Below are positions 41,970-61,309 of a stretch of DNA of 64,000 bases, in pieces. Source of the DNA: Acidobacteriota bacterium (GTDB lineage: Bacteria > Acidobacteriota > UBA6911 > RPQK01 > JAJDTT01); assembly GCA_965209055.1 (NCBI GenBank), contig OZ242374.1:128001-192000 (forward strand), written 5' to 3'. The first letter of the stretch is position 1. Each line of letters opens with the position of its first letter. Both the position numbers and the translations under genes were made by a program. The notes below the pieces were generated by a model that worked only from the letters and a program-made list of their open reading frames with translations, searched no databases and was not told the DNA's origin.

Positions 41970-42099
41970 CAGCGACCTCCTTGAGTAGTGCGGACTGCCT
42001 GGGAATGCAGACTAATTGCTTGGAGGCATGGTAGCCACAACGGGCCCATGAGTCAACAAGGCATGTTCTTCTCCTGTTCGCCTCTCTGCTTTTTGGGGC

Positions 42100-43941: not shown

Positions 43942-44005
43942 TCGGTTCGTGACAGCTTCAGATCCCAGGCGTCCGGCGCGGGAGTTTCGCGGAACCTCGA
44001 AACGA

Positions 44006-44941
44006 ATGCTTGCAACACTGGTCTGGGGCCTCGGATTCCTGCCGCTCTGGAGCCAAACCTACGATGAGGCGGTCCGTCACTTTCAGCAGCGGAATTACCC
44101 TGAAGCTCTGGCCGTGACCTATGAAATCCTGGCGGAGGATCCCGGCAACGCTGCCGGCCATCACCTCCAGGGACTGATCTTCGCCCAGTTGCGGCAGTTG
44201 CCCGAAGCCGAAGCCAGCCTGAGACGATCCGTCGAGCTGGGGCCCGGCCAGCCGGGCCATCACTTCGATCTGGCCGTCATCCTGCTCCGGCAGCAGCGGC
44301 AGGAAGAAGCACTGCCCCTGTTGGAACGCGCCGTGGAGATGGATGGATCGAACCTGATGACCCGTTTCTACCTGGGCCGGACCTACCACGAACTCAACCG
44401 CCTCGAACGGGCGCTGGAGCAATTCAACACGATCGTCGAGAGCGACTACAGCTTTCCCGCGGTCCACTACCACCTGGCCCGGGTCCATCGGAACAACGGA
44501 GCGGCCGAGGAGACCATTCGAGAGCTCCGGTACGAGATCGAACTCTATCCGAAGAATGTCGTGGCCCGGCTCGAGCTGGCCGAAATGCTGCTCAAGCAGG
44601 GACAGGCAGCGGAAGCCCTGGAGCACCTGCAGGTTGCCGGGACAGGCTTCTACAGCCGCGACCGCCGGGCGGTGGCGGTGGCCAAGAGCCGCCGGCTCTA
44701 CGTCACGCTGACCGCCCTCCCGCCGAGTCATCTGCACCTGCTCCTGGCCAAGGCCTACCGGGAATTGGGACGGCTGGAGGAAGCCGTCTCTTCGGCCCTG
44801 AAGTGTGTGGATCTCGATCCCGATCTGGCGGACCCGCACTACATCCTGGCGCAGATCTACCAGGAGCAGGATCGGATGGAGAAGGCGGCGCGGGCGATGG
44901 AAACCTTCAACCGGTTGAAGGCCGGGAGGGGGGACTGTTAG
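44006..44941 (+). CDS. Secreted tetratricopeptide repeat protein
   Basis: Signal peptide and multiple TPRs; stop codon lies inside a REP hairpin. Confidence 0.82.
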   Translation: MLATLVWGLGFLPLWSQTYDEAVRHFQQRNYPEALAVTYEILAEDPGNAAGHHLQGLIFAQLRQLPEAEASLRRSVELGPGQPGHHFDLAVILLRQQRQEEALPLLERAVEMDGSNLMTRFYLGRTYHELNRLERALEQFNTIVESDYSFPAVHYHLARVHRNNGAAEETIRELRYEIELYPKNVVARLELAEMLLKQGQAAEALEHLQVAGTGFYSRDRRAVAVAKSRRLYVTLTALPPSHLHLLLAKAYRELGRLEEAVSSALKCVDLDPDLADPHYILAQIYQEQDRMEKAARAMETFNRLKAGRGDC

Positions 44942-44994
44942 TCCCCCCGTCTTCCCTCTTCCTCGTCGCTGCGGGGATAGGAAAACCCCCGCTA
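44925..44994. repeat. REP-like inverted doublet
   Basis: GGAG-GGGGGACtgttaGTCCCCC and an inverted CGGGGataggaaaaCCCCCG-CTAC. Confidence 0.65.
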
Positions 44995-45307
44995 CCAGCG
45001 ACTGGGAAGTTGCCATTCCCCGGATCTCGAAGCTCGCCGGCTCCACCAGGGGTTGGCTCCTGAACGCCGACGCACCCTTTTCCCCTTCCATGGAAACAGT
45101 CCTGCGGGGCCCAGACAGCGATGGCCGCCACCACGCCGCCCCGTCACCAGAGCACGGCGCTCGCCCGGCTCGTCACACAGCGCTTGGTGTATCAATACCG
45201 GCATTCAAGCCCATCACGCCCACTGAGTCCTCCATCCGGAGAACTGCTGAGCCCACACGGTTTGCTCGGACCGTTGGACGGTATGATATTGCTTGCATGG
45301 GACTCTG

Positions 45308-48300
45308 ATGGAGTTGAATCGGCTAGGACAGCGGATATGTCTGGCTACGGTATTGTGCGTTGTTCCGTTGGCGATGCCTTCGGCAACTGCGCAGTCCACA
45401 TCGGGGTCGATCCTGGGCGACGTGGCGGACCTGTCGGGAGGATTCCTGCCGGGGGCGATCGTGAGCGTTAGAAACAACGCAACCGGTTCGACCCGAGAGG
45501 CGTTGACCAATGAAGTGGGAGCCTTCCGGTTCTCGGGGCTGCCACCGTCCAACTACTCTGTGACGGTAGAGTTTCCCGGCTTTCAGACCGTAACGCGGCC
45601 GTCGGTGACGCTGGCCGTGGGCGGCACGACGAAAGTCGATTTCGAGTTGAATGTGGGGTCGGTCGCCGAGTCGATCACCGTCGCCGGGGCGGTGCCGCTG
45701 GTGCAGCCGACGGAGAACACGATCCAGGTTGTGGTGGCCAACCAGCGAGTGCAGGAACTGCCGACCAAGAGCCGCGACTTCATGAATCTGATGCTGCTGG
45801 CGCCGGGCGTGACGGTAGACCAGAGCTCGGCCCGCATTGGCAACAGCGACTCGGTCAGCTTCTACGGCATGGACGAACGGAACAAGTCGGTATGGCTGGA
45901 AGGCGTGGACTTCAATGACGAGGTCACGATGGGCGGTTCGGACATTTCCGAGGCGACCCGGACGCGATTGGGGCAGGAAGCGATTCAGGAGTTTCAGGTG
46001 TTGTCGTCGGCCTTTTCGGCCGAGTTCGGCCGGACCGGCTCGGGGGCGATCAATGTTGTCGTGAAGTCGGGAGGCAACGACATCCACGGCAGCGGCTTTT
46101 ACTTCGTCCGCGACGACGCCTTCGACAAGGATCCGTTCCAGGTGGTCCGGGGTGAAGCAGTGCCGGATGCCAACCCGCCGCCGTTCCAGACCCAGCAGTA
46201 CGGGTTCACGATAGGCGGCCCGTTCGTGCGGCACAAGGTGTTCTACTTCGGATCCATCGAACGCCGCACCGAAGCGAACAGCTCGCAGGTGACGATTCCA
46301 GATTCGGTGAAGGCGTTCGTGGATTCCCTGAATGCCGGCTACGACACGTCCAGCGCGCTGCCGCGGTCGGTGGACGAGCGGAACGTGTTGGGCAAGTTCA
46401 CGCTCAACCTGCATCCGAGGCACACGATGAACGTCATGTACCTGTACGACGACAGGGAGTTCACCAACAAGCGGACCGGGCAGACCAACGGAGCCGACAA
46501 CGGGTTCGACGACACGCGCAGCTCCTATTACGCAACGGCGAGCCTGACGTCTCTCATCAGCAACAGATTCGTGAACGAATTCCGGGCGAACCGCTCGATC
46601 CAGCGCCTGTTCCGGGATTTGCAGGCCAGTGCGAGCGGACGGTTTCTGCCGACGCTGGATTTTCCCTCGGTCGACCTCGGAGCGGCGAGCGATGTCCCGC
46701 AGGGCCGGGTCCAGGCGAACTGGATCTTCTCGGACACGATGAGCTGGGAGTGGGGCAACCACTCGTTCAAGTGGGGCTGGGAATCGAATCGGATCCTGGC
46801 AACGGCCGACGCGAACGTGGATTTCCAGGGGGTCTACCGGTTCCCATCCGATACGGCGACGTTGCCGGACCGCTATACGGCGAACTTCAACCTCCCGTTC
46901 GAGAACGGCAATTCAACGGAGCCGAGGTTCATCAGCATCCGCCGCGACGTGGCCTCCTACGCCGCATTCGTCAACGACACGTGGCGGGTGACGCCGAGCT
47001 TCACGATCAACATGGGACTGCGCTGGGACAAGCGGACCTACCTGGATGTGGACGGCGTGGCGTCTATCGGCGGACCGGACGCTTTCGAACAGCCGGGTTT
47101 CTCGCGGGACCGGCCGCAGGATGTCTGGGTGTCAGTGGCGCTGGGCGAACTCGGCGCCTTGCCGGTGAGGGACTGGCGTCCGGGTGTCGAGGACAAGCTG
47201 GACCTCTCGCCGCGTTTCGGTTTCTCCTGGGATGTGACCGGCAACGGTCACGCGGTGGTCCGGGCCAGCTACGGCATCTTCCATGACCGGATCAACACGA
47301 GCACGCTCCGGAGCCGGGTCTTGAGCTACAACGGGCTGTTGACTTCGGGAACCCAGTTGGACGCCTCGAACGCGGCGCAGAACGCGATCATCCAGAGGAA
47401 CTTCCCGAACCGGATCGCGACCCTGCTGTTGCCGGGAGGCGCCAGCGTCGGCGGAACCCCCGATGCGCCTTCGGCGCGGATGAACACGCCCTACACCCAA
47501 CAGTCCCACGCGGGCTTCCAGTACGGGATCAGGCAGGACTTGGCCGTGTCGGTGGACTTCGTGCACATCTTGGGTCTGAACTACGACTGGGGTCCGGGCC
47601 TGTCAACCTCATGGGAACCGAACGCGCCGCTGCCAGGGGCCACGTCGCCGTCAGGTCGAGTGTGCCCGTTCGCCCGCCAGATCGTTGCGCAGTTGGGGTT
47701 GCCGGCAACGGCGGCCAACCTGCGTTCCAACAGTGCGGGCTGTCTGCGGATCCAGGTCGCCGACTTCACCAACCGGTTGCACATCAACAGCTTGAGTCTC
47801 CGGCTCGAGAAGCGGTTCACGCGGAACTTCGGTTTCCTGGCCGGGTACACGCTAGGCTCAGCGAAAGGCTTCGACTGGACCTCACCGCACATCAAGCACG
47901 GCGAGGCCAATTTCGGCCCGACCGAGAACGACGTGCGGCATCGTTTCACGGGCAACTTCATCTACCAGTTTCCCCACGACGTCCAGGTGTCGTCGATCCT
48001 TACAGCCAACAGCGCGCCGCCCTACGACATCACGACCGGCAACGACGACAACTTTGACTTCCTGCGCAACGACCGTCCGGAGGGAGTCGGGGCCTGGGCC
48101 GGCCGCGGCGCGAACTTCGTCCGGTGGGACCTGCGGTTGACGAAGAAGTTCGTCATTACCGAGGCGACGAGAGTGGACGTGATGTGGGAGATGTACAACA
48201 TTGGCAACCGGGCCAACTTCGTGAACTTCGATGGCAACCAGCGCTCCTCCAGCGCTAACCAGGCGCGGGGCGTCGTCCCCAGCGGTCAGTTCCAGGGTCA

Positions 48301-48325
48301 GTTCGGCCTGCGGTTCGTTTTCTGA
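45308..48325 (+). CDS. TonB-dependent receptor (Oar-like)
   Basis: Signal peptide; FSAEFGR, KSGGNDIHG and LSPRFGFSWD; ends GLRFVF. Confidence 0.9.
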   Translation: MELNRLGQRICLATVLCVVPLAMPSATAQSTSGSILGDVADLSGGFLPGAIVSVRNNATGSTREALTNEVGAFRFSGLPPSNYSVTVEFPGFQTVTRPSVTLAVGGTTKVDFELNVGSVAESITVAGAVPLVQPTENTIQVVVANQRVQELPTKSRDFMNLMLLAPGVTVDQSSARIGNSDSVSFYGMDERNKSVWLEGVDFNDEVTMGGSDISEATRTRLGQEAIQEFQVLSSAFSAEFGRTGSGAINVVVKSGGNDIHGSGFYFVRDDAFDKDPFQVVRGEAVPDANPPPFQTQQYGFTIGGPFVRHKVFYFGSIERRTEANSSQVTIPDSVKAFVDSLNAGYDTSSALPRSVDERNVLGKFTLNLHPRHTMNVMYLYDDREFTNKRTGQTNGADNGFDDTRSSYYATASLTSLISNRFVNEFRANRSIQRLFRDLQASASGRFLPTLDFPSVDLGAASDVPQGRVQANWIFSDTMSWEWGNHSFKWGWESNRILATADANVDFQGVYRFPSDTATLPDRYTANFNLPFENGNSTEPRFISIRRDVASYAAFVNDTWRVTPSFTINMGLRWDKRTYLDVDGVASIGGPDAFEQPGFSRDRPQDVWVSVALGELGALPVRDWRPGVEDKLDLSPRFGFSWDVTGNGHAVVRASYGIFHDRINTSTLRSRVLSYNGLLTSGTQLDASNAAQNAIIQRNFPNRIATLLLPGGASVGGTPDAPSARMNTPYTQQSHAGFQYGIRQDLAVSVDFVHILGLNYDWGPGLSTSWEPNAPLPGATSPSGRVCPFARQIVAQLGLPATAANLRSNSAGCLRIQVADFTNRLHINSLSLRLEKRFTRNFGFLAGYTLGSAKGFDWTSPHIKHGEANFGPTENDVRHRFTGNFIYQFPHDVQVSSILTANSAPPYDITTGNDDNFDFLRNDRPEGVGAWAGRGANFVRWDLRLTKKFVITEATRVDVMWEMYNIGNRANFVNFDGNQRSSSANQARGVVPSGQFQGQFGLRFVF

Positions 48326-48464
48326 TTGCGACACGGAGCCATGGATCCGTCCCGGATCCGGGACTCACCGCAACCTCCGCGGGCCCGCCCTATTCACCGC
48401 CATTTAGCGAAGGGGCTTATCTACGAAAGTGCCCCACGAATTGCAGCGGGCGGGAGTGATGCCG

Positions 48465-48584
48465 CCGCGCCATCAGGTTGCGGGAAATGCGCCGACGGCG
48501 CCGGTCGTAGACCGGCGTGGTGTCGGGATGTGCGTGACCGGCCAGGTTCTGGACGTCCTCAAGCGGCACGTTCTGGCTCGGCAA
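48465..48584 (-). pseudogene. C-terminal fragment of a tyrosine recombinase
   Basis: Minus strand reads LPSQNVPLEDVQNLAGHAHPDTTPVYDRRRRRISRNLM (box II LAGH...TT..Y). Not in the ORF track. Confidence 0.75.
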
Positions 48585-48643
48585 GGCAATGCACGGGACG
48601 TTAGTGCGCCATTCGTCTTTGTTGCTACGTGATTCAGGAGAGT

Positions 48644-48705
48644 GTAGAGGGGGACTGCCGTCGCCCCTAACCCCCCCGGTTCGGCGACAGGAAACTCGCC
48701 GCTCC
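48644..48705. repeat. REP-like inverted doublet
   Basis: GTAG-AGGGGGACtgccGTCGCCCCT, a C-run spacer, and an inverted TCGGCGAcaggaaacTCGCCG-CTCC. Confidence 0.7.
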
Positions 48706-50310
48706 TTGGATCCGGAAGCTCGCCGGCTCCACCAGGGACTGGCCCGAGACCTGGTCCTGGACCTGCAGCATGATCCGGTAGGTGCCGGGAACCAGGTCCT
48801 TGAGCTCCATCTCCTGAATCAACACCACGCGGTCGTCCAGTTGGATCATCCGGGGCTCTTCCACCAGGATCTGGTCCCTTCCGCGGAAGACCAGGAGCTT
48901 GGCCTGAACCAGCGGCGCCAGCATGGCCTGGTCCACCTGGAGCTCGTAGATTTCGGTGTAGACGTGCAACTTCGATCCGGTCCGGAACTCGCGGGTGATG
49001 TTGGGAAAGACCTTCAGCCCGCTGGGCGTGTTGAACGGGTCCGACAGCGTCTCTTCCCGTGCGGATGAAGCCAACCCGTCCGCCAGGATGAGGCTGCTGG
49101 TGGCCAGGTTCCCGGCCTTCGACTCGCTGACGTGAATGGAGGTCGCGGCCTGGGACACCCGCTGGCTGCGCGTGTCCTTGGCCACCAGGTTGAACTTGAA
49201 GCGTCCCGGCCGGAGCGGAATCTGCTTCTGGTAGAGGAAATGGGTCTCGGTGCTCAGGATCTCGTCGACTCCCTTGTCTCCAGCCAGAGTGTCCTCGAAC
49301 TCGTAGACCACCTTCCCTGACAGGTCCTCGACCTTGCCGTAGATTTCGACCGTCGCCCGTTGGTTCGATTCGCCGAACTGCGCGTACGACAGCTCGGTCG
49401 CGGGAATCTGGACGGTCAGAGGAATCAGGAAGGCGTTCTGACCCACGCGGTAGACGGCGGAGACGACCTTCAGAGGGATCGGATTGTAAAGAATCCGGGT
49501 CTCCACTTCGGTGGCCAGCTTTTCGAACTTGAACTCGGGAGGCCTGCGAAGGTCGAAATATTGCCGCAGGCGGTCGAAGGGCTTGGCGCCCCTCATGTAC
49601 ATGGGCTCGGTTTCCAGACCCAGGCGCCGCATGGCCAGGTCGGAGACCATGCTTCCGTCGCGGGTCGCCAGGCCCATCTGTTCCCAGCGGGTCGGCCCTC
49701 CGCCGCTCACCCAGAGCGCGTCCTTCTCGGAGGGCCTCAGCGCCAGCTTGTATTCCCCCGTCCTGCTGGCGTCCACGAACTCGATCTCGATCCCCGATCC
49801 GATGCCGGGAATGTAGTTGTAGAACCAGCGCTGGAAGGCATAGGTGCTGGTCCAGCCGCCACCCTCTTCGGGCCGGCGCCGATACATGCCCCCCATATGG
49901 TCATCGATGGTGTTGGGGGGGCCGTAGGTGATGTAGATGCGGCCCCGGTCCGTGTACCAGCCCTCCACGCCGGAAGCGTAACGTTCGTTGGCGTAGGCGA
50001 CGCGGCGGTAGTGTTCTTCCTTGAATTCGTTGTAGGTGGTCCTGGGGTCCGGGTCCCTCCGCCTCCAGAACTGCTCGATGAAGGCGTCGCGCTCGTCGTC
50101 GGCAGTCAGGCTCTGGAAGATCTCCCGTTCCTCTTGGGTGATGATGTAGACCACGTCCTCCCGGAGCCACTTCCGGTAGTAGTCCTCCTGCTCCTCCCGG
50201 AGCATCTTCTCGCGGCGCTCTTCGTCGCTTTGGGATTGCCCGGCGGCGTCCGTCGAAGCGGACGCCAGCAGGATCAAGCCGGCGGCCACCGAGTTTCGAA
50301 GGGTGAGCAT
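48667..50310 (-). CDS. GWxTD domain protein
   Basis: WLREDVVYII, FIEQFW.RRDP, EEHYRRVAYAN and GWYTDRGRIYITYGPP. Confidence 0.92.
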   Translation of the reverse strand: MLTLRNSVAAGLILLASASTDAAGQSQSDEERREKMLREEQEDYYRKWLREDVVYIITQEEREIFQSLTADDERDAFIEQFWRRRDPDPRTTYNEFKEEHYRRVAYANERYASGVEGWYTDRGRIYITYGPPNTIDDHMGGMYRRRPEEGGGWTSTYAFQRWFYNYIPGIGSGIEIEFVDASRTGEYKLALRPSEKDALWVSGGGPTRWEQMGLATRDGSMVSDLAMRRLGLETEPMYMRGAKPFDRLRQYFDLRRPPEFKFEKLATEVETRILYNPIPLKVVSAVYRVGQNAFLIPLTVQIPATELSYAQFGESNQRATVEIYGKVEDLSGKVVYEFEDTLAGDKGVDEILSTETHFLYQKQIPLRPGRFKFNLVAKDTRSQRVSQAATSIHVSESKAGNLATSSLILADGLASSAREETLSDPFNTPSGLKVFPNITREFRTGSKLHVYTEIYELQVDQAMLAPLVQAKLLVFRGRDQILVEEPRMIQLDDRVVLIQEMELKDLVPGTYRIMLQVQDQVSGQSLVEPASFRIQGAASFLSPNRGG

Positions 50311-50344
50311 CCTTATGAAGACAATATAGCAGCCTGTGGAATGA

Positions 50345-51961
50345 TCATTGCGGGGGATCCGCCATGAGCCATTCCGAAAAGAACTGGAAGGAAAAGATCT
50401 TGCTGCGCTGCATGTGGAACCTGAGCTGGAGGACGCGCCCCTTCAGAGCCGTCAGGTCGAATTTTTTCTTCCAGCTCACGGTGTGCGCGATCGAGTCTCC
50501 CCGAAACGATTGGCAATCCTCTCGCGAATAGCCGGGCAGGGGCTCACCGGTCTCGGGGTCCAGGATCTCCACCTGGATGGCGCCCTCGTCTCCCGCCGTC
50601 GACCCGTTCAGTCTCAGCCGGTTCCCGGAGAATCTCAGCGGCTTGGTGGTGAAGCTGCCCCGTCCCGCCGCCAGCGAGAGGAAGCCGTCGAGGCGCAGGA
50701 CGGCCAGGTTCTGCGAACTCTCCTGGTTCTCACCCCGGCGCACCCCCCAATGGCCCTTCTTGAACCCGGTGTAGTAGAGCCAGATCTCGCCCCGGTCCTC
50801 CCGGACCAGGGGAGGCTGGGCCACGAAGATCATCCCCGAGTCGTAGCTGCCTTCCGGTCCGTTGGGAATGAAGGGCCGCCGCTGTCCCACCCGCTGCCAG
50901 TTCGTACCGTCGCGGCTGTAGGCCAACTGGATGTCGATGCGGTCCAACCAGGGGTTTCGCGCCAGATCCCGGCTGGGAGGCGTCATGGGCTCCATCCCCG
51001 GACAGATGTGATAGGGGGTCAGGAACCCGATGTAGATCCCTTCGTAGAGCAGGGTCTCGAAGGTGTAGAAACCGCCGGTGCAGGGGGCGTCCTTCTCGTC
51101 CGGGGGGACCAGGATGTATTTCCGGTTCACCTCCACCGGGTCCTTCATCTCCGCGGGGGCGTCCCAGGTCAGGAAATCGGGACTGGTGGCGATCCCCGGA
51201 GTCCTCACCCGGCCCTCGCGCCTTGTGCCCCGAAACAACGGATGGTCCTTGAAGATAGGCGGCCAGAGACGGATATGGGCCACGTAGAGGTTGCGCCGGG
51301 GGTCCCAGAAGAAGACCTGGTGGGTGTCGTTGTTCAGGAAGACCGGATTGACGCCGTCGTAGAGTTCCCATTGGATGCCGTCGGGCGAATGGGCCGCCCA
51401 GACTCCGTTCACCTTCGGGTCCTTGCTGTTGTGGCGGTAGAGCATCTTGTAGCGCTTGCGGGGATCCGACTCGTGCGGGTCGCGAGCCACGCCGGGGGCG
51501 CGGGCTCCAACGTCCTTCCCGAAGACGAAATTGTGCTTGCGGGAGGCTTCTCCCGGGCACCACTTGGAGTGGTAGTCGAACTGGCCCACCATTGGCTTGT
51601 CCCAGTTGAGGCCGTCGCGGGACTCGTAGTAGCCGACGAAATTGTCCGACCAGTCGTAGTTCACCACCTGGTGCCACATCTGGTAGACGTTCCGGTCCGG
51701 ATCGAAGGCCAGGTTGGGGGAATTGCCGAAGTGCATGTCCGCCTCCCAGCACCGGTCCATCCGGATTACCGGGTTCCCGGCATATTTGAGCGGCTGGTTC
51801 ATGATCCGGTAGACGCCCTGCATGGATTCGATCACGTGGTCGTCAAAGAAGAGCTGCTTCCGGGATCCCACGTCGACTGGATTGGCCCGGATCCCGGCTC
51901 CCAACACACCCAGAAGCAAAAAATAGCATTGAAGCCGACGGAATCCCCTGCGGACGAACAT
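50345..51961 (-). CDS. Secreted glycoside-hydrolase-like beta-propeller protein (paralogue of 24226-25884)
   Basis: QLFFDD, KYAGNPV, NNDTHQV, DAPCTGGFYT and LRLDGF. Confidence 0.72.
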   Translation of the reverse strand: MFVRRGFRRLQCYFLLLGVLGAGIRANPVDVGSRKQLFFDDHVIESMQGVYRIMNQPLKYAGNPVIRMDRCWEADMHFGNSPNLAFDPDRNVYQMWHQVVNYDWSDNFVGYYESRDGLNWDKPMVGQFDYHSKWCPGEASRKHNFVFGKDVGARAPGVARDPHESDPRKRYKMLYRHNSKDPKVNGVWAAHSPDGIQWELYDGVNPVFLNNDTHQVFFWDPRRNLYVAHIRLWPPIFKDHPLFRGTRREGRVRTPGIATSPDFLTWDAPAEMKDPVEVNRKYILVPPDEKDAPCTGGFYTFETLLYEGIYIGFLTPYHICPGMEPMTPPSRDLARNPWLDRIDIQLAYSRDGTNWQRVGQRRPFIPNGPEGSYDSGMIFVAQPPLVREDRGEIWLYYTGFKKGHWGVRRGENQESSQNLAVLRLDGFLSLAAGRGSFTTKPLRFSGNRLRLNGSTAGDEGAIQVEILDPETGEPLPGYSREDCQSFRGDSIAHTVSWKKKFDLTALKGRVLQLRFHMQRSKIFSFQFFSEWLMADPPQ

Positions 51962-52134
51962 GATTGATTTCTCCGTTGGACCGGCTCGATGTGTTCGGGG
52001 CCTGGATGCCACCCCGCGACTTGCTAAAACTCTACAGGGTCGCCGCCGCATTGTCATTTGATCGGACGGGAAAGACCGGTAGACTGGTTGATAACACCGG
52101 CCGTTGGTATGAGACTTCCGCGAGAGGTTCAGTG

Positions 52135-52935
52135 ATGCATGAAGATCCGATGGACGTGCTCCGCCGTGACGGTTATGTGATTCTGCGATCGGTCATTCCG
52201 GTCGACAAGGTGGGTGCGGTTCGAAGAAGTGTCGCCGCGACGGTTCGCGAGCACACGAGCCTGCCCCTGCCCCAGGGATACGTCACCGGTTTCCTCCGCT
52301 TGAATCAGGCCATCGCCCCCTACCTGACCCATCCCCGGATCATGGCCGTCGTCGACGAGCTCTTCGGCGACAACGCCCGCATCTCCATGCTCACCGGAAC
52401 CATCAACGGTCCCGGACTTCAGCGGGGGACAGTCCACGCCGACTGGCCCTACAACCAGGACCAGTTCTCCTGCGTCCGTGCCCCCTATCCCGACGTGATC
52501 TTGAATCTGGTGACCATGTGGATGATGTCCCGGTTCACCCGGGCCAACGGCGGAACCATGGTGATCCCCGGCAGCCACTTGCGGAACCGGGCTCCCCGAA
52601 AAGGGACCGACCTGGATCCCAACTCGGTATTCGAGGGGGAGACCCAGATCGAGGGAAACCCCGGAGACGTGGCCGTCTTCGATGCCCGGACCTGGCACAG
52701 CATCGCGCCCAACGTGACCAACGAGGAGCGGGTCGGGGTCCTGGTTCGATACGCTCCCTGGTGGGTCAACCTGGGGCCGCTGCGCCCCGGCAGCCGCGAC
52801 CGGAAGCAGATCATCGAGGATCGGGGAGGAGGCGACCATACCGATCCCAAGGTCCAGCCCCTGCCGGAATCGGTCTATCAACGCCTCCCCGCCGACGTGC
52901 AGCCCCTCGTCTACCACATGGTGGTTCCGGACTAG
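52135..52935 (+). CDS. Phytanoyl-CoA dioxygenase (PhyH) family 2OG-Fe(II) oxygenase
   Basis: RDGYVIL, HADW (HxD), NGGTMVIPGSH and GDVAVFDARTWH. Confidence 0.88.
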   Translation: MHEDPMDVLRRDGYVILRSVIPVDKVGAVRRSVAATVREHTSLPLPQGYVTGFLRLNQAIAPYLTHPRIMAVVDELFGDNARISMLTGTINGPGLQRGTVHADWPYNQDQFSCVRAPYPDVILNLVTMWMMSRFTRANGGTMVIPGSHLRNRAPRKGTDLDPNSVFEGETQIEGNPGDVAVFDARTWHSIAPNVTNEERVGVLVRYAPWWVNLGPLRPGSRDRKQIIEDRGGGDHTDPKVQPLPESVYQRLPADVQPLVYHMVVPD

Positions 52936-52995
52936 TCCCCCAATGCGAGCGGAGAGACCCGCCGCCGCGCAGAGCGAACGTCCGCACGACAGGCA

Positions 52996-53730
52996 ATGGA
53001 ACAATACGACTCCATCGCTGAAGCCTACCGGGATTCCAAGCAACTCCCGTTTCGGCACCTGATCGAGCGGTTCACACTGTTCGAGCTCCTGGGAGACGTT
53101 CGAGGAAACAGGGTCCTGGACCTGGCCTGCGGGGACGGCTTCTACACGCGGCTGCTGAAACGGGCCGGCGCGTCCGAGGTCACGGGCGTCGACGTCTCCA
53201 GGGAGATGATTCGATTGGCGGAACGGGAAGAAAGGAGCAATCCTCTCGGTTGCACTTATCTGCAGCGGGACGCCGCGGCCTTCGCACCGGCGGAGCCGGT
53301 CGACCTGGTCGTCGCCACGTACCTCCTGAACTACGCTAGCACTCGGGAGCGGCTCCTCCGCTTCTGCCAGGGCTGCCACGACGCGCTGCGGCCGGGAGGA
53401 CGTTTCGCCGGCGTGAACGACAACGTCCGGAATCCGCCCGTGGAGTCCGTTTCCCTGCAAAAATACGGCCTGGAGAAATCCTGCCCGCCCCGGCCGAAGG
53501 AAGGGGACGTCATTCTGTACGCCATCACCAACGAGGACGGGCAGCGATTCGAGTTCGAAAACTACTACCTCGAACCGCGCAGCTACGAGCGCGCCTTCCG
53601 CGCCGCCGGTTTCCGGGACTTCCGATGGGTGGAGCTGTCGCTGCACCCGTCCCAGCAAGACAATCCCTTCTGGGACGATTTCATGGCCTCCCCGCCCATC
53701 ACCGCCTTCGCGGCGTCAAGACCGGTGTGA
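52996..53730 (+). CDS. Class I SAM-dependent methyltransferase
   Basis: VLDLACGDG, GVDVSREMI, YLLNYA and LRPGGRF. Confidence 0.9.
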   Translation: MEQYDSIAEAYRDSKQLPFRHLIERFTLFELLGDVRGNRVLDLACGDGFYTRLLKRAGASEVTGVDVSREMIRLAEREERSNPLGCTYLQRDAAAFAPAEPVDLVVATYLLNYASTRERLLRFCQGCHDALRPGGRFAGVNDNVRNPPVESVSLQKYGLEKSCPPRPKEGDVILYAITNEDGQRFEFENYYLEPRSYERAFRAAGFRDFRWVELSLHPSQQDNPFWDDFMASPPITAFAASRPV

Positions 53731-53749
53731 AACCCTCCCCGCCGCGCCG

Positions 53750-55366
53750 TCAGGTCCCGACATAGAGGGCGTAGACGCGGATTCCAGCCACCTTCTCTCC
53801 CTCGAAGCTCACCTTGATCTTGAAGGGTTTCTTCATTCCCGGGATCCCGTTCCCTTCCGGCCATGAGACCGGGACCCGCAACCCCGATTCCGTCAACAAG
53901 GCGGCCCCCTCGCCCGAATAACCGGCCATCGGCCGCTCCAACGCGTCATAGAGTTCCAGCCGAAGCGTGGCGTCTTCGGAAACTCCCTCGGCATTGACCC
54001 ACAGCGTCGCTTCGCCGCGGGCCTCGACGGCGGCCGTCATGAAGGCCGCCGGAATCGAGTCGTCCCGCACCGAGAAGGAGCCCAGGCGGTCCCGCTCCAG
54101 CGTAGCCAGACCCACGCCGCCCCGGGGCTCCAGCGACCCCGGGTCCCAGGCGCCGTACCAGATATAGGTCTCCTCTCCCACGTTCTCGAACCCCTGGCCC
54201 TGGATCAGGCCGCCCTGGTCCCATTCGTGGTCCTCCCCACGCCGGATGAAGATGAAATCGGTGAGAGGCTCCCGGAAATGGACGCCGTCGTTGCTGACGA
54301 CGAAACCCAGGTCCACGGTCCTGCCACGCCAATCGGGCGAGCCGTGCCAGACTCCGTAGAGCCCCAGCAGCACATTGCCCCGGTTCCAGACGCTGATCCC
54401 TTCGTGTGACTCTTCCCCGGAGCCGCTGGGGACTTTCTTGTGCTGTCCCTCCCGGGAAAAGGAGAGGGTCCCGGTGTGTTCCCACCGGACGAAATCGGGT
54501 GAGCGGTAGGTGCCCACCGACCGGCCCCAGGAGTCGACCGCATAGACCGGCCGGGCTCCCTGGCCCGATGCGTGAAACAGTCCGCCCCACTTGTAGAGTC
54601 CCCCGGCGGCCTCGAAGTGGTCGGTGGGGATGATCGTGTTTCCCTTGGGCAGGAGTCCGTTCTCGGGTGTCCCGGGAATGGCCAAACGCCAGCGCAGGCC
54701 GTCGCCGCTCACCGCGGGGGCCAGGGTCGCCAGCCCCTTCTTCCCGTCCTCGTGCCACCAGGTGTGCAGCGACATCTTGAACTGCCGGGAGGGATCGGGG
54801 TCTTCGGGGTCGTGGATCACCTTCAGGTTGATGACTCCCAGAGGCGCCGGCTCCATCAGCACCAGGTTGTTGTCCCGGCTGCCGTCGTACTCCTCCAGTC
54901 CCAGCGCGGGACGCGTCCAGTGAATTCCATCGGTGCTCTCGGCGTAGGCGGCGCGCCACTTCAACGGGATGATGTCCACCCGGGGAGTCCACATCATGTC
55001 CTCCTCCACGACTGTGAAGGGATCGCGGCCGATGGCCACGTACCAGAGCTTGAACTTCCCCTCGTGGCGAACCACGGAGCCGTAGAACTGGACCCCGAAC
55101 TCGTCCGGCGCCCCTTCCGGCCCCCGGGGCAGGACCGGATTGCCGGGATGCTTGCGCGGCGGATGCAGTTCCAACCCGACGTTCTGGGTGAAGGGAATCG
55201 AATGGTTGTCGAAGGGGAAGAGCGAAGCCTCCGCAACCGTCGGCCGGGTTCCCACCAGCACCGTCACCCCGTCCGGGCGATCGCCGGTGGGCGCTCCCGG
55301 CTGGCATGCGGCGCCCAGCACTAACCCGAGCAGCGGAATCATCCTCACTGAAAATGCCAGCTTCAT
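53750..55366 (-). CDS. Lipoprotein, glycoside-hydrolase-like beta-propeller family
   Basis: Lipobox GAAC; KHPGNPVL, AESTDGIHW.RP.LG, SNDGVHF and the related C-terminal module. Confidence 0.68.
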   Translation of the reverse strand: MKLAFSVRMIPLLGLVLGAACQPGAPTGDRPDGVTVLVGTRPTVAEASLFPFDNHSIPFTQNVGLELHPPRKHPGNPVLPRGPEGAPDEFGVQFYGSVVRHEGKFKLWYVAIGRDPFTVVEEDMMWTPRVDIIPLKWRAAYAESTDGIHWTRPALGLEEYDGSRDNNLVLMEPAPLGVINLKVIHDPEDPDPSRQFKMSLHTWWHEDGKKGLATLAPAVSGDGLRWRLAIPGTPENGLLPKGNTIIPTDHFEAAGGLYKWGGLFHASGQGARPVYAVDSWGRSVGTYRSPDFVRWEHTGTLSFSREGQHKKVPSGSGEESHEGISVWNRGNVLLGLYGVWHGSPDWRGRTVDLGFVVSNDGVHFREPLTDFIFIRRGEDHEWDQGGLIQGQGFENVGEETYIWYGAWDPGSLEPRGGVGLATLERDRLGSFSVRDDSIPAAFMTAAVEARGEATLWVNAEGVSEDATLRLELYDALERPMAGYSGEGAALLTESGLRVPVSWPEGNGIPGMKKPFKIKVSFEGEKVAGIRVYALYVGT

Positions 55367-55391
55367 TTGTCCGATCTCTCTTCCTTGGCCA

Positions 55392-55469
55392 GGAGGGGGG
55401 ACATTCCTGTCCCCCTGTCTTCTCTTTTGCGGTCAGGAAGCGTACAGGGGGGACTGCCGTCCCCTCTAC
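55392..55469. repeat. REP-like palindromes at the left junction of the integrative element
   Basis: GGAG-GGGGGACAttccTGTCCCCC (55392-55415) and GTAC-AGGGGGGACtgccGTCCCCT-CTAC (55442-55469). Confidence 0.7.
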
Positions 55470-56258
55470 GGGAAGAATCTGTTAAGTATCTGATATTAAA
55501 GGAGTTATGATCTATCCTCCCGAGCAGGTTACATCATTGCATCCCACCTTCTAAACGGGATTCCATTCGACCCTATTGGAGGTCCGTGGACTCCAGGGAC
55601 GAGTTTCGCGCCTCGACTCCCAGGTTTCAAGCGCCTGCGCGCTCCAGGAATTGGGGGCCTACATTCGGAGCCGACTGGGTCCGTATGGCCAGGACTTCCG
55701 GAAACGGGCGAACGTCCCACTCCCGGTTGGAAGCCCGTCGAGACCGCGCGAGGGTCCCATTCTCATGGGACGCGCGACGAACAGAAGCGCCAGGTTCACT
55801 GGCGGCAAGGTGAGCCGCCAGGGGTTCTGGCGCCACTGGGGGGTCTGGGGTGATAGGGCCTCCCGGTCCGTCCTCCGTTCCGGGTTGCCGGAGAAACCGC
55901 GCCCTGCGCTTCGTCCGCCGCCTGCTCCGGTGCCGCCACGGCGTGGAGGCGGCTCTCGACGGCCGGGCCACCACCCGCACCGGCCGCCTCGTCGGCCAGG
56001 CCCTGTACCGGGGGCTGGGCCTGGAGCGGACCCCGACGCGGACCTCCACCTGCCGTTCCGAGTTCAGACCTTCCGGGGTTCGGTCCCGATCCTCGTCCAA
56101 GAGGACGCCGAAGATCCACCTGCACCTGCGGACCCCAGTGGCACGCGTCGCCTGTGGTCATCCCTGGATCCTGCGGAAGGGATGTGAACGGAGGCCTGGC
56201 AGAGCCCTAACAGGTCTTCCGGATTCTTCTCCGGGGCCTTCCCGCAGGGATCAATGAA

Positions 56259-56355
56259 GAAGTGAGCGACCCCCCCAGGGGGTATTGCGCAGATGTAAAT
56301 TGCGCAATACCCCCGCGCCCGCACCGGGCGGGAAAAAGGGGGGGTCGCTCACTTC
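56259..56355. other. Perfect nested inverted repeats (three-way junction)
   Basis: An 18-bp outer stem (56259-56276/56338-56355) encloses a 14-bp stem (56278-56291/56301-56314) and a 6-bp stem (56316-56321/56325-56330). Confidence 0.85.
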
Positions 56356-56601
56356 CACCTCCGCTTTCCCCGTGCGGGCGCGGCGAAGCCGGGAATGTGG
56401 CCGTAACTGATTGAGCGACAAAGAGATCGGGGAAATTGGAGGTGTGAGTCAAAAGGCGTCCGGGATGGAACTCGGGTCCAATGTCTCACTCACACTCCCG
56501 GATCGACACCGTACCCCACTTTTCAGCGGTCAAATTCGAGCTCCCGGACGCCGGCTCGAACGCCCGATCCCGAAGCCTGCCGGGGGGGCCACCACGGTGG
56601 C

Positions 56602-57801
56602 TCAACGGAGCCGGACGGACGCCCGAGGCCGGCTCCCGCCGGCCAGATAGCTCGCCCATTCCTCCATGAGCACGCGCCGCCGCTCGAACAGGTCCGTGCG
56701 CCGGTACGCCGCCTCGACCACCTCGCGCGGATGGTCCGTCTCCTCCGCCGCCCAGTCCCGGAACGACGACCGGAACCCGTGCGGCACGGCTGCGATCCCG
56801 TTCCGGCGCAGCAGCTTGCGCAACCGGCCGGAGCCGAGCGGTCTTCCGCCCCTTCGGGCGAAGATCAACCGGGCTGCTCCATGATCCAGCGTGCGTGCCT
56901 TCTCCAGGATTTCGTTCGCCCGGCGGCACAAAGGCACCCGGTGCGCCCGTTTGGTCTTCATGCGCATTCCGGGAACCGTCCACATCCCTTCCGCCGGATC
57001 GATCTCCGACCACTCGGCCCACCGCACCTCGCCCCACCTCGCTGCCGTGAGCACCAGGAACTCGAAGGCCAGCAGGGACACGGGCATCGCGTTGGAGGCC
57101 CGCACCTTCCGGAGGGCCGGCCCCACCTCGCGATGCGGCAAGGCCGGCATGTGCCGCACCACGTCGTCCTGTGCTCCGAGGACCGACACGACCCGGTCGC
57201 AGGGGTTGTCGGTCCGGTATTCCATCGCCACGGCCCACTCCAGGACCGTGCGGAGGCGCTGACGCACGGTTCGGGCCGTGCGCGACTTCACGTGCCAGAT
57301 GGGCACGAGGATCTCCAGGACATCGCCGCTGGTCACCTCCGAGACCGGCATCCGGCCGATGCACGGAAAGGCGTAGCGTCGAAAGCTCGCCATCCAGTCG
57401 TGGGCCTGCCTTTGATTGCGCCAGCCGGACCGCTTCTGCTCCACCACCCGCTCGGCGGCTTCGGCGAAGGTGGGCATGTTCCGGGTGCGGCGTCTCTCGG
57501 TCAGGGGATCCCCACCCTCGCGGGCCAGCTTGCGGTTGGCCCGCGCCTTCTGGCGCGCCTCGGCCAGGGACACCAGCGCCACACCGCCGAGACCGAAGTC
57601 GCGGCGGCGACCGCGGATGACGAGGCGTTGGATCCAGCTTCGAGCTCCGTTAGGCTTGACGTAGAGGTAGAGGCCGTTGCCGTCGCAGTGTTTGCCCGGT
57701 GGGGCGGAGCGCACGAAAGCGGCGGAAAGCGCCTTGTGGGGATGGCGGCCCTTCGGCTTGGTTTTCCGGGCCGAAAGGGGAGAATCAGTTACATCGAACA
57801 T
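56602..57801 (-). CDS. P4-like tyrosine integrase with Arm-DNA-binding domain; internal deletion near the active site
   Basis: DGNGLYLYV, LTAARWGEVR, RMKTKRAHRVPL, HGFRSSFRDW and AAYRRTDLFERRR; the usual LAH segment is missing. Confidence 0.88.
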   Translation of the reverse strand: MFDVTDSPLSARKTKPKGRHPHKALSAAFVRSAPPGKHCDGNGLYLYVKPNGARSWIQRLVIRGRRRDFGLGGVALVSLAEARQKARANRKLAREGGDPLTERRRTRNMPTFAEAAERVVEQKRSGWRNQRQAHDWMASFRRYAFPCIGRMPVSEVTSGDVLEILVPIWHVKSRTARTVRQRLRTVLEWAVAMEYRTDNPCDRVVSVLGAQDDVVRHMPALPHREVGPALRKVRASNAMPVSLLAFEFLVLTAARWGEVRWAEWSEIDPAEGMWTVPGMRMKTKRAHRVPLCRRANEILEKARTLDHGAARLIFARRGGRPLGSGRLRKLLRRNGIAAVPHGFRSSFRDWAAEETDHPREVVEAAYRRTDLFERRRVLMEEWASYLAGGSRPRASVRLR

Positions 57802-57807
57802 TACGCC

Positions 57808-57836
57808 ATAATAAACGGGATGGAGTAGGATATCAA
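57808..57836 (-). promoter_or_regulatory. Sigma70-type promoter of the integrase (probably leaderless mRNA)
   Basis: Minus strand TTGATA-17 bp-TATTAT, ending 6 nt before ATG 57801; no Shine-Dalgarno sequence. Confidence 0.6.
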
Positions 57837-57973
57837 GGGACGTCAGGGGAGGCCGAAACGGGGTAAGTTCGGGTCTAAACTGAAGAAATAAAACCACTTA
57901 AAAGGAATTCCGGGATCTCTGTGGATCTCTCTGGATTCAATGGGAGTGTTGCCGTCCCCCCGACCCCCCCTAA

Positions 57974-57998
57974 TCGGCGACAGGAAAGTCGCCGCTCC
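57974..57998. repeat. REP-like palindrome (inverted) right of the element
   Basis: TCGGCGACAGGAAAGTCGCCGCTCC differs by 1 nt from the copy at 48681-48705. Confidence 0.75.
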
Positions 57999-58003
57999 TC
58001 CCC

Positions 58004-59701
58004 TCATTCGTCCCTCGTCGCTGCGACCCGCTCGATGAGCATTCCAGCCGGGTCCGGCGACGCCGCGCTGGAGCGCAGCCGCAAGTAGCTCAGAGGATCA
58101 TTGTCGTTATTCAGCCGGGGCAGGTCCAATGCGGTCTTGCCGTCGACCGCCACCGAGCAGCGGTTGCGATTCAGGTCCCAGGCGAGGCGGAGAGCATGCC
58201 AGCGGCCCTTGGCCAGGACCGGTCCGCCCTCGATCCTTCCAGCGGCGTCTAAATGAAGCCGGAAAACCTCCAACCGTTCGGCCGCCGGCTCAGCCGGCTG
58301 AATAAACCGGTCGGCGAGAGCGATGACTCCGCCCCCGAAGCCTTCCGGCAGCAGGACCCGGAGTGAGACCTGCCCTCGCCTTCCGGCCGGAAAGTTCCAG
58401 ACGGCCTCGTCGCCGCTCTTCTCATCGGGCCGCCGCACCTGAAGCGACTTGGCGCCCTCCCGGGTGGGATGATCCACCAGCCGGGGACCCTGGACCCGGT
58501 CGCGCCAGTAGTATTCGGCGGGCCCGAAGGGCTTGAAGACGCTCCAGCCTTCCAACCCCGCCGAGAAGTCGTCCTCCCGGGTGGTGGCCCCGATCCATTC
58601 CGGGTCGATGCGCACCAGGGCGATCCGGCCCTGTCCCTGACCCGTCGCCAGGATGACCTTTCCGTCTCGGGTCGCCGTGGAAAAGGGATAGGCGGTCCCG
58701 CGGTCGCCGCGCCGGGGAGGGGGCCGGTTGCGGTTGGGATCCCGGAAGGCCTCCCGGTATCCCTTCCAGGTCCTTCCTTCGTCGCCGGAGATGGCCACGT
58801 GGAGGGCATCGCGCGTCGTGTACACGGCCTCTCCGTCCACGCGCGACGGGTTCTCGCAGTTGTTCCAGAACACCACCAGCCGGCCGTCGGGCAGGCGCAA
58901 CAGGTTGGCCGGAGAGTTGGAGGAGCGGAAGCGTGTGGGCCTGGCCTCGGACCACTCGACCCCGTCCGGGGAGAACGATTCGTAGAGGAAACTGGTCTGG
59001 GTCCGGATCAACATCCAGACCCGGCCGTCCCGAAGCTGGACCGCTACCGGCTCGGTCGCGCCGTAGTTGCTGCCGATGTAGCCGCTGCGGCAGGGAGAGG
59101 TGAGCCGCGCCGGCGAGAGCCGCCAGCTCCGGCCGCCGTCGTCCGAGGTGCTGGTGGTGACCACGTGGGACCCCGTGGGCGGCTCCGACCGCAATCCCGG
59201 AACCCAGAACTGCTGGGGCAGCACGATCCTTCCGCTCTCGAGTTGGAGGACCCCGTTCAAGGCCCCCACGTAGCCTTCGAAGATCCTCTTGGGATCGGAC
59301 CACCGGGACCGGCCGTCCCGCGTCGCCGCATGCCAGATGTCGTAGAAGTAATCCACGGTCGGCGTCCGCCCGGCGCCCCGCAGCACCAGCATGAAGGCGT
59401 GCAGCTCTCCCTCCCGGTCTACCAGCACCACCGGAACGCCGGCGGGATTCCTGAACTCGAACTCGACCCGGGGCTCGCTCCAGGTGACTCCTCCGTCACT
59501 GGAGCGGATCGAGGCGCAGTGTTTTCCGGAGACCATGTAGAGAATGCAGAGTTCGCCTCCCGGCAGCGTCACGATGGCCTTGCCGGGCGGAGACGCCCGG
59601 AGCAACACCGGCGGGTCGGCACCTCGGACCGGAAATCCCAGAGCGACCAGTAGCAGGGTCGAAACCCAGGTGATTCGAACTGCGCGGCTGGAACTGCCCA
59701 T
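58004..59701 (-). CDS. Secreted sialidase-like BNR protein with C-terminal beta-sandwich
   Basis: Asp-boxes SSDGGVTW, SDDGGRSW and SGDEGRTW; ATEP...L.DGRVWMLIRT; AYP. Confidence 0.8.
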   Translation of the reverse strand: MGSSSRAVRITWVSTLLLVALGFPVRGADPPVLLRASPPGKAIVTLPGGELCILYMVSGKHCASIRSSDGGVTWSEPRVEFEFRNPAGVPVVLVDREGELHAFMLVLRGAGRTPTVDYFYDIWHAATRDGRSRWSDPKRIFEGYVGALNGVLQLESGRIVLPQQFWVPGLRSEPPTGSHVVTTSTSDDGGRSWRLSPARLTSPCRSGYIGSNYGATEPVAVQLRDGRVWMLIRTQTSFLYESFSPDGVEWSEARPTRFRSSNSPANLLRLPDGRLVVFWNNCENPSRVDGEAVYTTRDALHVAISGDEGRTWKGYREAFRDPNRNRPPPRRGDRGTAYPFSTATRDGKVILATGQGQGRIALVRIDPEWIGATTREDDFSAGLEGWSVFKPFGPAEYYWRDRVQGPRLVDHPTREGAKSLQVRRPDEKSGDEAVWNFPAGRRGQVSLRVLLPEGFGGGVIALADRFIQPAEPAAERLEVFRLHLDAAGRIEGGPVLAKGRWHALRLAWDLNRNRCSVAVDGKTALDLPRLNNDNDPLSYLRLRSSAASPDPAGMLIERVAATRDE

Positions 59702-60043: not shown

Positions 60044-61309
60044 ATGATTCAGAACCTGACTGTTCGTAGTTTCAAATCACTCTCCAACATTTCAATGGAA
60101 TTTCCCCGGCTGACGATTCTCTTCGGACCTAATGCCGCGGGAAAGAGCAACCTCCTCGACGCGATCCAAGCTCTGTCGAGGATCGGTACAGAGCGCACGC
60201 TGATGGATGCCCTCGGTGGACAAATGATTCGGGGATACCCGATCGAAGCATTTGCTCTGCCGGCCGGTGGAATCCCGGAATTACTCTCGAAATCTACCGC
60301 CAGGTTTTCGATTTCTGCAGACTTGGCAATCCCTGACGGGCGAAAAATCAGAAAGAACCGTTACCGTTATCGAATCGAGGTGGAAATCGCCTCCAAGTCG
60401 GGTGCTCTGGCCAACTGTGACGAGTATCTGTCGGCTCTGTCAACGACCGGAAATGAGAAAGGAGTGCCGGCAATTGAAGTGGAATCGGAGCCTCAGCGTT
60501 TGAAGATCCGGCGCCAGAGTGGGGGCGGGAGACCTCGTTTCGAGGACCTCAATCAGAACTACGCCATCCTCTCCGACCCACGGTTAGGAAGCCCGGCACA
60601 CAAGTACATCGAACGGGTTCGGGAAGAACTCTTCGGCTGGAGAACCTACTACCTGGATCCGCGGCTGGCGATGCGGCGTGCGTCGCCACCACTGGATGTG
60701 TTTGATATAGGTGTGTTCGGAGAGGACATCGCAGCCTTCCTCTACAAACTCAAGGCAGAGCGCAGAAAGAACTTTGAATCGGTCGTCCGAACTGTGCAAT
60801 CGATAATTCCAAGCGTCGAGGCATTCGACATCGATCTGGACGAGCGTCGAGGCATTCTTGACATCAACGTTCAGCAGAACGGCACCAACTACTCTTCCCG
60901 CGTCGTTTCCGAGGGGACACTCCGAGTGCTGGCGCTCTGTGCAATCTCAGCGAATCCGTGGAGTGGCTCGCTTCTTGCGTTCGAGGAACCCGAGAATGGT
61001 GTGCATCCGAGACGGATAGAACTGATTGCCAAAATGCTGACGGCAATGGCTGTGGAGCAAGAACGCCAAGTCGTCCTGACGACCCACTCGCCGCTTTTTT
61101 GCGATGCCGTGCTCAAAGAAGCCCGGGGGCGGCCACATGGCGATATCGCTTTGTACAACGTTCGCCGCGTAGGCCGGGAAACTCAAATCCAGCGCTTCGA
61201 TCCCCCTGTCGAGTTGTTCGATCAGCCCGACATCATGAGCAATCTCACGAGTAAGACGGAAGATGGCATCTTCGAATTCATGGTCATGCGTGGATGGCTC
61301 AATGAATGA
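60044..61309 (+). CDS. AAA/ABC-type ATPase (AAA_21-like)
   Basis: Walker A GPNAAGKSN, signature SEGT, Walker B FEEPENGVHP, H-loop TTHSP; visibly lower GC. Confidence 0.9.
   Translation: MIQNLTVRSFKSLSNISMEFPRLTILFGPNAAGKSNLLDAIQALSRIGTERTLMDALGGQMIRGYPIEAFALPAGGIPELLSKSTARFSISADLAIPDGRKIRKNRYRYRIEVEIASKSGALANCDEYLSALSTTGNEKGVPAIEVESEPQRLKIRRQSGGGRPRFEDLNQNYAILSDPRLGSPAHKYIERVREELFGWRTYYLDPRLAMRRASPPLDVFDIGVFGEDIAAFLYKLKAERRKNFESVVRTVQSIIPSVEAFDIDLDERRGILDINVQQNGTNYSSRVVSEGTLRVLALCAISANPWSGSLLAFEEPENGVHPRRIELIAKMLTAMAVEQERQVVLTTHSPLFCDAVLKEARGRPHGDIALYNVRRVGRETQIQRFDPPVELFDQPDIMSNLTSKTEDGIFEFMVMRGWLNE

Follow-up and report, generated by a model that had tools for sequence, protein, structure and literature searches.

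The 64,000-bp stretch of DNA analysed here (the window) comprises positions 128001-192000 of the one contig of a 6.08-Mb Acidobacteriota genome with 62.8% G+C. Toward its right end it holds a 2,485-bp element whose single real gene encodes, on the minus strand, a tyrosine integrase, and which interrupts an intergenic unit resembling the repetitive extragenic palindromic (REP) sequences of other bacteria. The unit with the element sits between the start of one minus-strand gene (55366) and the stop of another (58004). The junctions of the element are termed attL (left) and attR (right), its own attachment site attP and that of the chromosome attB. Coordinates are those of the window unless the genome is named. 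The locus is made up as follows.

55392..55416, plus strand: first hairpin of the three-hairpin REP-like unit, GGGGGGACA/TTCC/TGTCCCCC, upstream of the insertion and outside the element.
55442..55464, plus strand: attL, chromosomal side, with the GTAC foot, the 5' arm GGGGGGAC (55447-55454) and the core TGCCGTCCCC (55455-55464).
55465..57949, no strand assigned: integrated element, 2,485 bp; similarity to four sister elements begins and ends exactly here.
55465..55720, plus strand: integrase-distal arm (P'), AT-richer, 78-94% conserved across five elements.
55721..56224, no strand assigned: non-coding mosaic of modules repeated elsewhere in the genome, as seen from genome matches.
56225..56511, no strand assigned: structured module of about 280 bp, repeated in the genome, whose outer stem of 18 bp encloses a 15-bp hairpin; it closely follows the stop of the integrase gene.
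56602..57801, minus strand: tyrosine integrase gene, 399 amino acids (Pfam Arm-DNA-bind_3, Phage_int_M and Phage_integrase).
57802..57949, plus strand: integrase-proximal arm (P), defined by alignment of five elements; it contains TAAACGGGAT (57812-57821) and GGATCTCT motifs in tandem.
57950..57959, plus strand: attR copy of the core TGCCGTCCCC, an exact match.
57960..57998, plus strand: rest of the REP unit, consisting of a C-tract, the second hairpin CGGCGAC/AGGAAA/GTCGCCG and a final CTCC.

A preliminary description of this DNA, made from the sequence of the window, had proposed that the element is bounded by a 10-mer at 55455 and 57950, and we find the two copies of TGCCGTCCCC at 55455-55464 and 57950-57959 to be exact and the sole exact copies within the window, with 2,485 bp between them. 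When one mismatch is allowed the window contains 21 matches, compared with 13.3 expected, so that the 10-mer is unremarkable by itself and it is the context that counts. This context is a REP-like hairpin, of which the 10-mer forms the loop and most of the 3' arm. To the left of the element stands GTACAGGGGGGAC and then the core, to its right the core and then CCGACCCCCCC...CGGCGACAGGAAAGTCGCCGCTCC; joining the two flanks restores a hairpin whose 8-bp arms match perfectly around a 4-nt loop (GGGGGGAC/TGCC/GTCCCCCC), with a second hairpin after it. The uninterrupted repeat at 48644 is laid out in the same way, in agreement with the excision product that had been predicted. The further proposal that excision recreates the three-hairpin unit at 38374-38479 is borne out for the layout, but that unit lies on the opposite strand and is only 75-79% identical. 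The first hairpin of our unit (55392-55416) recurs, on the opposite strand, in the unit at 38374-38479 and is also retained at the orthologous locus of relatives. As had been suggested for the left end, attL folds with the help of the first element bases into a hairpin with a 9-bp stem and a GTA/TAC foot; attR does not refold. ARAGORN identified no tRNA or tmRNA gene in the window, and an Rfam scan of 54500-59000 with E up to 1 returned zero matches. The two ends of the element do not form an inverted repeat: their score of 8 is close to the mean of 7.8 from 500 shuffles, 251 of which scored as high or higher. Identity as an insertion sequence (IS) or transposon was considered and rejected, since the sole gene is a tyrosine integrase, terminal inverted repeats are lacking and the duplicated 10-mer is constant in all five elements of the genome.

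BLAST against the genome identified four sister elements, A to D, with intact integrases of 91% amino acid identity by tblastn and 94% in a second search. Additional integrase paralogues comprise one at 78-80% identity and ten at about 61-65%. The elements measure 2,485 (window), 6,726 (A), 16,376 (B), 3,149 (C) and 3,149 bp (D), and every one of the five is bounded by the exact 10-mer TGCCGTCCCC. All junctions follow one pattern, reading GCGTAnAGGGGGGAC-core|TCTACGG... at the left and ...AATGGGnGTGT|core-CCTACCCCCC at the right, with GCGTAnAGGGGGGAC on the left and the C-tract and second hairpin on the right in 5/5 elements. The flanks of A, C and D are mutually unrelated beyond the REP. C and D are 98.8% identical across 3,149 bp, which argues for recent spread. 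The attR of element B (genome 818194-818225) has a C-tract of about 27 C, compared with 7-8 in the other copies. An integrase-less remnant is present at genome 2757304-2760037, where an attL-like junction with the diverged core TGCCGACCCC is accompanied by a left arm (81% identity) and a single 280-bp module; a search over 9 kb revealed no right end. Five elements and this remnant, with two nearly identical copies in unrelated flanks, support the view that the integrase family multiplies in the manner of an IS, and both the REP targeting and the IS-like spread put forward in the preliminary description are upheld.

Counted on both strands, the genome contains 85 exact copies of TGCCGTCCCC, where about 40 are expected from composition. 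Ten of these lie in an uninterrupted REP, five at an attL, five at an attR and 65 outside REPs. (The script classes were 65 other, nine intact REP, six attL and five attR; the copy at genome 794999, whose 3' side starts TCTACCCC, was reclassified by eye as an uninterrupted REP.) Elements occupy 5 of the 15 REP sites and 0 of the 65 non-REP sites (Fisher p = 1.2e-4, in a test that assumes independent sites, which the duplicated locus B is not). The target is the REP and not merely the 10-mer. Empty sites, at genome 1094979 and in the same-genus genome G001, have the form of a hairpin with a 9-bp stem and a 4-nt loop. One uninterrupted REP unit spans genome 1094950-1095040. The target hairpin is found at 23 genome loci with up to 2 mismatches, and the second hairpin at 157 sites with up to 3 mismatches and at 253 with up to 4; the repeats also occur in composite layouts, with many dispersed copies in the genome. 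In a crude genome-wide test of spanning open frames, REP sites and random sites were poorly separated (median 380 and 561 codons, respectively). A Y1_Tnp-like gene at genome 1142970-1143203 (30.8 bits) has the HUH-type motif NHVHVLF and lies between REP-like hairpins. This candidate for a REP-associated transposase fits a system of REPs and REP-associated tyrosine transposases (REP/RAYT) without proving it.

Further support for insertion into a pre-existing palindrome is provided by the orthologous locus in relatives. The left-flank gene was located in all eight other genomes of the genus (G001 to G008), and the intergenic stretch between the orthologous genes was compared. Four of the eight (G001, G002, G003 and G006) hold an uninterrupted hairpin and second hairpin, the state that the preliminary description had anticipated in relatives and that corresponds to the removal of 55465-57949 plus one copy of the core; in G001 the empty locus reads GCGTAGAGGGGGGAC TGCC GTCCCCCC TACCCCCCCC. 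In G007 there is no repeat and the genes abut, in G008 the locus holds a B-like element on two short contigs, and in G004 and G005 other sequence follows the left gene in the stretch examined. Overall, the element has inserted into a pre-existing multicopy palindrome at one fixed position, the 10-bp core is duplicated, and the target is reused.

Matches to the integrase (E up to 1e-30) were found in 15 of 41 related genomes, including 8/8 others of the genus. We examined the integrase-proximal junction in nine close homologues of other species. Three of them (in G008, G001 and G006) adjoin a REP in the standard way, one (G004) has a shortened core followed by other repeat sequence, and three occupy the site used by the paralogue of 78-80% identity, here called lineage E; the remaining two are taken up below. 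In G001, which is another species, both junctions of a 2.5-kb element fall within the same hairpin, in a different REP copy and with the core TGTCCCCC. The ends of the window element and its sisters coincide with the 10-bp repeat in 5/5 cases, and those of the G001 element likewise fall in the hairpin. The 13 related loci contain no tRNA or tmRNA gene according to ARAGORN, and no tRNA-targeting member was seen among those examined. Homologues in tRNA genes or at random sites, the outcome that the preliminary description named as contrary to its proposal, were thus not encountered: the nearest of them occupy REP copies or one particular hairpin at the 3' end of a repeated gene, rather than random positions.

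That second hairpin type belongs to lineage E (genome 2675594-2679629), which is flanked by CCGCAGGG within the loop of the hairpin GAGCGCTG...CAGCGCTC. The hairpin lies at the 3' end of a Y1-transposase-like gene with about six paralogues, one of which (genome 4990561-4990568) presents the empty site. Elements in G001 and G004 use this site as well, one of them in the opposite orientation. The left arm of lineage E is 91% identical to that of the REP lineage and its attP differs mainly in the 10 core bases, which gives the clearest hint that retargeting may work by a change of core.

The window integrase matches PF13356 (65.5 bits), PF22022 (86.2 bits) and PF00589 (41.7 bits), and the intact paralogue A matches the same three Pfam families. 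The integrase frames of the paralogues are 437-443 amino acids long and free of stops; those of C and D lie at genome 1064757-1065995 and 2971017-2972255. In the window copy a 36-bp in-frame deletion at about 56707-56719 has removed the 12-residue stretch VEAALAHVVKNK, including the conserved LAH histidine, which paralogues A-D and E retain in full in the alignment; TAAR, HGFRSSFR and AAYRR are still present. The Pfam match of the catalytic domain ends at profile position 144/172 in the window copy and at 167/172 in paralogue A. In paralogue A, the 36 bp lost from the window copy are flanked by two copies of the 12-bp direct repeat GTCGAGGCGGCG, an apparent mark of slippage deletion, and metagenome contigs of relatives have extra letters at the deletion site. 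The complete catalytic set of tyrosine integrases is R, K, H-x-x-R, H/W and Y. Because we take the lost histidine to be a member of this set, the window copy is probably inactive.

Both arms of the element contain TAAACGGGAT, exact at 55552-55561 and 57812-57821 in the window copy. In 5/5 elements its offsets are +88 (left end) and -138 (right end), and a single mismatch occurs in two of these ten sites. The integrase-distal arm (55465-55720) holds repeated GATCT-type motifs besides TAAACGGGAT, and we propose both kinds of motif as candidate arm-type sites. Of the two features that had been noted in the AT-rich ends, the repeated TAAACGGGAT is therefore present in both arms of all five elements, but the site for integration host factor (IHF) finds no support: a search of the window for the strict IHF consensus WATCAANNNNTTR gave 0 matches.

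We are confident, if short of certain, that 55465-57949 is a small tyrosine-integrase element of P4/DUF4102 type that entered the middle hairpin of a multicopy REP-like unit by site-specific recombination. Strand exchange would take place within TGCCGTCCCC, which attP and attB have in common and which today bounds the element on either side. As an almost perfect palindrome, the REP may supply the inverted core-type sites that a tyrosine recombinase needs, and the conserved arms, including TAAACGGGAT, would be bound by the N-terminal arm domain, giving a classical attP x attB recombination with duplex recognition. Because the target exists in dozens of copies, such an element could multiply IS-like within the genome while sparing genes, and larger members would ferry cargo such as a defence system. 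The window copy would be a stripped and probably disabled member, whose movement would need an intact paralogue in trans.

The same integration could also be imagined with the REP recognised as an extruded or single-stranded hairpin, in the manner of IntI on attC or of XerCD on folded phage DNA. The target, as described above, is a hairpin with a 9-bp stem and a 4-nt loop, the crossover falls in the loop and 3' arm, attL refolds to a hairpin, and small hairpins mark the ends of sister lineages too (one is GAGCGCTG/CAGCGCTC with CCGCAGGG in its loop, the other TCCTTGCGGGAAGG). We nevertheless consider this route unlikely, as the three domains of the protein, one of them arm-binding, are arranged as in the λ/P4 type, both arms carry conserved repeated motifs as in duplex attP x attB systems, the 10-bp identity of element and target is a requirement of duplex strand exchange, and the block of identity lies off-centre to the dyad of the hairpin. 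It is harder still to credit that the REP halves are the element's own termini, or that REPs were added later, for example by a REP-associated Y1 transposase. Such an enzyme may exist in this genome, given the Y1_Tnp-like gene with its HUH motif and surrounding REP-like hairpins, and this origin still seems to us next to impossible: four relatives hold an uninterrupted hairpin exactly at the position of the element, which is strong counter-evidence, the genome itself has ten uninterrupted REP copies with the same core, and the two halves sum to one repeat unit plus one duplicated 10-mer.

A very small chance, again well below that of a folded target, attaches to the explanation that the copies arose by segmental duplication or by homologous recombination between REPs, with the integrase as a passenger. 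One pair does lie in a segmental duplication, in which window 44931-55464 and 57956-70000 correspond to genome 789046-801807 and 818207-828555 at 94-99% identity, and the flanks of the window locus and of locus B are 98% identical over at least 10 kb on each side. REPs are also known as recombination substrates (PMC1525189). Such an origin is at odds with A, C and D, whose flanks are unrelated beyond the REP and whose junctions are yet base-identical, with borders sharp at the core. The direct repeat of the core between conserved arms is, moreover, the signature of site-specific recombination. Even within the duplicated pair, identity is only about 87-91% between the window element and element B, compared with 98% for the flanks around them; because the elements are so much more diverged than the duplicated flanks, the two sites were most likely filled or refilled separately. 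Another part of the window, 40000-44945, is duplicated at genome 489531-484586 (segmental, 94-99% identity).

Several observations weigh against integration into the REP as the explanation of this locus, or limit its reach. The window locus and locus B are not independent targets, being parts of one segmental duplication, and with a genome contamination score of 7.4% this duplication may be an assembly artefact. The same-genus genomes are kin and not independent samples. Two of the nine homologues (in G001, contig C1 4437172-4437900, and in G004, C1 5298500-5299200) adjoin a complete REP hairpin in the opposite orientation (TGAGGGG(G)AC...), a misfit to the standard junction. The window integrase is damaged, so that the window copy itself may be immobile, and the candidate arm-type sites are proposed from conservation. 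Finally, no excised circle or empty-site molecule of the element was seen; the public runs with related sequence are metagenome contig sets matching 13-37% of the sequence words, which could not reveal one, and four of them gave fragmentary coverage. One contig that joins 55460 to 57976 via 20 other letters was considered as an excision product and set aside, being most simply another REP copy.

The left 1.1 kb of the window element, which is the part outside the integrase, appears to be non-coding. Its longest open frame has no Pfam match. Three long open frames in this part differ from copy C by 16/17/14, 12/13/9 and 7/6/8 substitutions at the three codon positions, and a hidden excisionase or regulator was dropped as a candidate because no codon-position bias is present. 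An excisionase or directionality factor near the integrase is common among such elements, if not obligatory; none was found in the 1.1-kb non-integrase part of the window element, a search that did not extend to the cargo of the sisters. Within the mosaic, a stretch of 130 bp (55746-55875) shows 82% similarity to the 5' region of one copy of a group II intron. That intron lies at genome ~784160-786450 on the minus strand, encodes a reverse transcriptase/maturase open reading frame and is present in several near-identical copies (Rfam group-II-D1D4-6, 160.7 bits; Intron_gpII, 41 bits).

The structured module at 56225-56511 gave fold z-scores of -5.6 and -5.8 and is conserved in the alignment. 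Genome-wide there are 61 copies of at least 150 bp, about 40 of them away from integrases, and in the close group as well as in the ~62% group the module stands 3' of the stop of several integrase genes. Its first bases are always CCTTCCCGCAGGGA, which in reverse complement is the sequence where one subgroup of the 62% integrases ends. Since it has no Rfam match, the module is not a described RNA family.

The window element carries no cargo. Element A, by comparison, contains trypsin-like protease genes and one gene of no assigned identity, and the cargo of element B (genome 803381-813612) consists of a C5 cytosine methylase followed by PADLOC matches to MzaB, MzaC, MzaD and MzaE. The Mza-type defence genes of B belong to the Pfam families HATPase_c_3, Z1, DUF4420 and AIPR, with MzaE split over two frames. 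Because A and B carry cargo, the family appears to work as a small island vehicle. In the chromosome to the right of the window element, about 2 kb away and past a BNR-repeat gene, lies an AAA_21/AbiEii-like ATPase gene (60044-61309, plus strand, 104 bits).

A scan for relatives with one genome per species returned at least 582 stretches. The best 80 of these, from which the taxonomy was taken, come mostly from metagenome-assembled genomes of Acidobacteriota (including Vicinamibacterales and Terriglobia), Gemmatimonadota/Longimicrobiales and Ca. Versatilivorator, with one Gammaproteobacteria record, and many of the genomes are multi-copy. Sponge and coral-reef metagenomes account for several of the public runs with related sequence. 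In one Ca. Versatilivorator genome, where one junction of the elements is known and the left ends lie beyond the loci compared, similarity stops at TGCGGCGGCGGCAGCA in six of the nine copies examined. TGCGGCGGCGGCAGCA is the 3' half of the palindromic repeat GCCGCGWAGGCGGCGRCAGCA, which has 119 copies with up to 2 mismatches (0 for the reversed control). Other copies in the Ca. Versatilivorator clade end in differing sequences, some of them within coding repeats. A broader proposal would make our elements a single branch of an extensive tyrosine-integrase clade that crosses phyla and has specialised on multicopy palindromic repeats. The REP families would differ by host, with the gene-end hairpin of a Y1-transposase-like gene used in one lineage, and the palindrome would serve as a core site that is re-aimed by about 10 bp of attP. 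We see the chances for and against this proposal as evenly balanced.

Site-specific integrases are regarded as one-site enzymes, usually aimed at tRNA genes, and multiplication within a genome as the business of transposases. At the present locus an ordinary-looking integrase seems to reach an IS-like copy number by taking a repeat as its attachment site. If the broader proposal holds, the safety of site-specific integration is joined with IS-like growth in copy number, and REP sites become landing pads for defence islands. The sister lineages, which differ mainly in the 10-bp core, would offer a natural system for studying how attB is re-aimed and how REP arrays shape the landing of islands and defence systems. 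Could a tyrosine integrase with dozens of native sites serve as a multi-site insertion tool? The elements are also a warning to island-finding software that relies on tRNA targets or single-copy sites.

Among known tyrosine recombinases, IntI also has many targets, the attC sites, which are imperfect palindromes able to form hairpins; it mobilises cassettes that lack promoters and recognises attC as a folded bottom strand. The present integrase resembles it in having many imperfect-palindrome targets but, unlike IntI, is carried on the element itself and possesses an arm-binding domain. The likeness to integrases of P4/CP4-57-type islands and satellite phages extends further, comprising the three-domain architecture, an integrase gene near one end, two conserved arms, a direct repeat of the shared core at the ends and a cargo slot in larger members. 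For λ/P4-type integrase elements, the 3' end of a tRNA or tmRNA gene is the typical, not the defining, target. In contrast to the P4/CP4-57 type, the target here is a multicopy palindrome, intergenic at this locus, and not such a gene end, there are several copies per genome, the smallest members carry the integrase only, and the score against the NCBIfam PRK09692-like model, 139 bits, falls far below its cut-off of 434.

The IS110 family of transposable elements uses a guide RNA. Full-text literature, a coverage that leaves subscription journals and supplements outside, yielded no tyrosine integrase with REPs as attB, and the REP-targeters found there are IS elements only. According to one source (PMC1525189), IS1397, ISKpn1, IS621, ISPpu9/ISPpu10, ISPa11 and ISPsy8 insert specifically into REP palindromes, and REP-targeting ISs use DDE or DEDD transposases. 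Our element shares with them the many safe landing sites that REP palindromes provide. Unlike them, it has a tyrosine integrase with an arm-binding domain and no terminal inverted repeats, and its duplication is a fixed 10-mer shared with the element. The system is a P4-type island integrase in all but its choice of target, and it resembles the REP-targeting ISs in that choice only.

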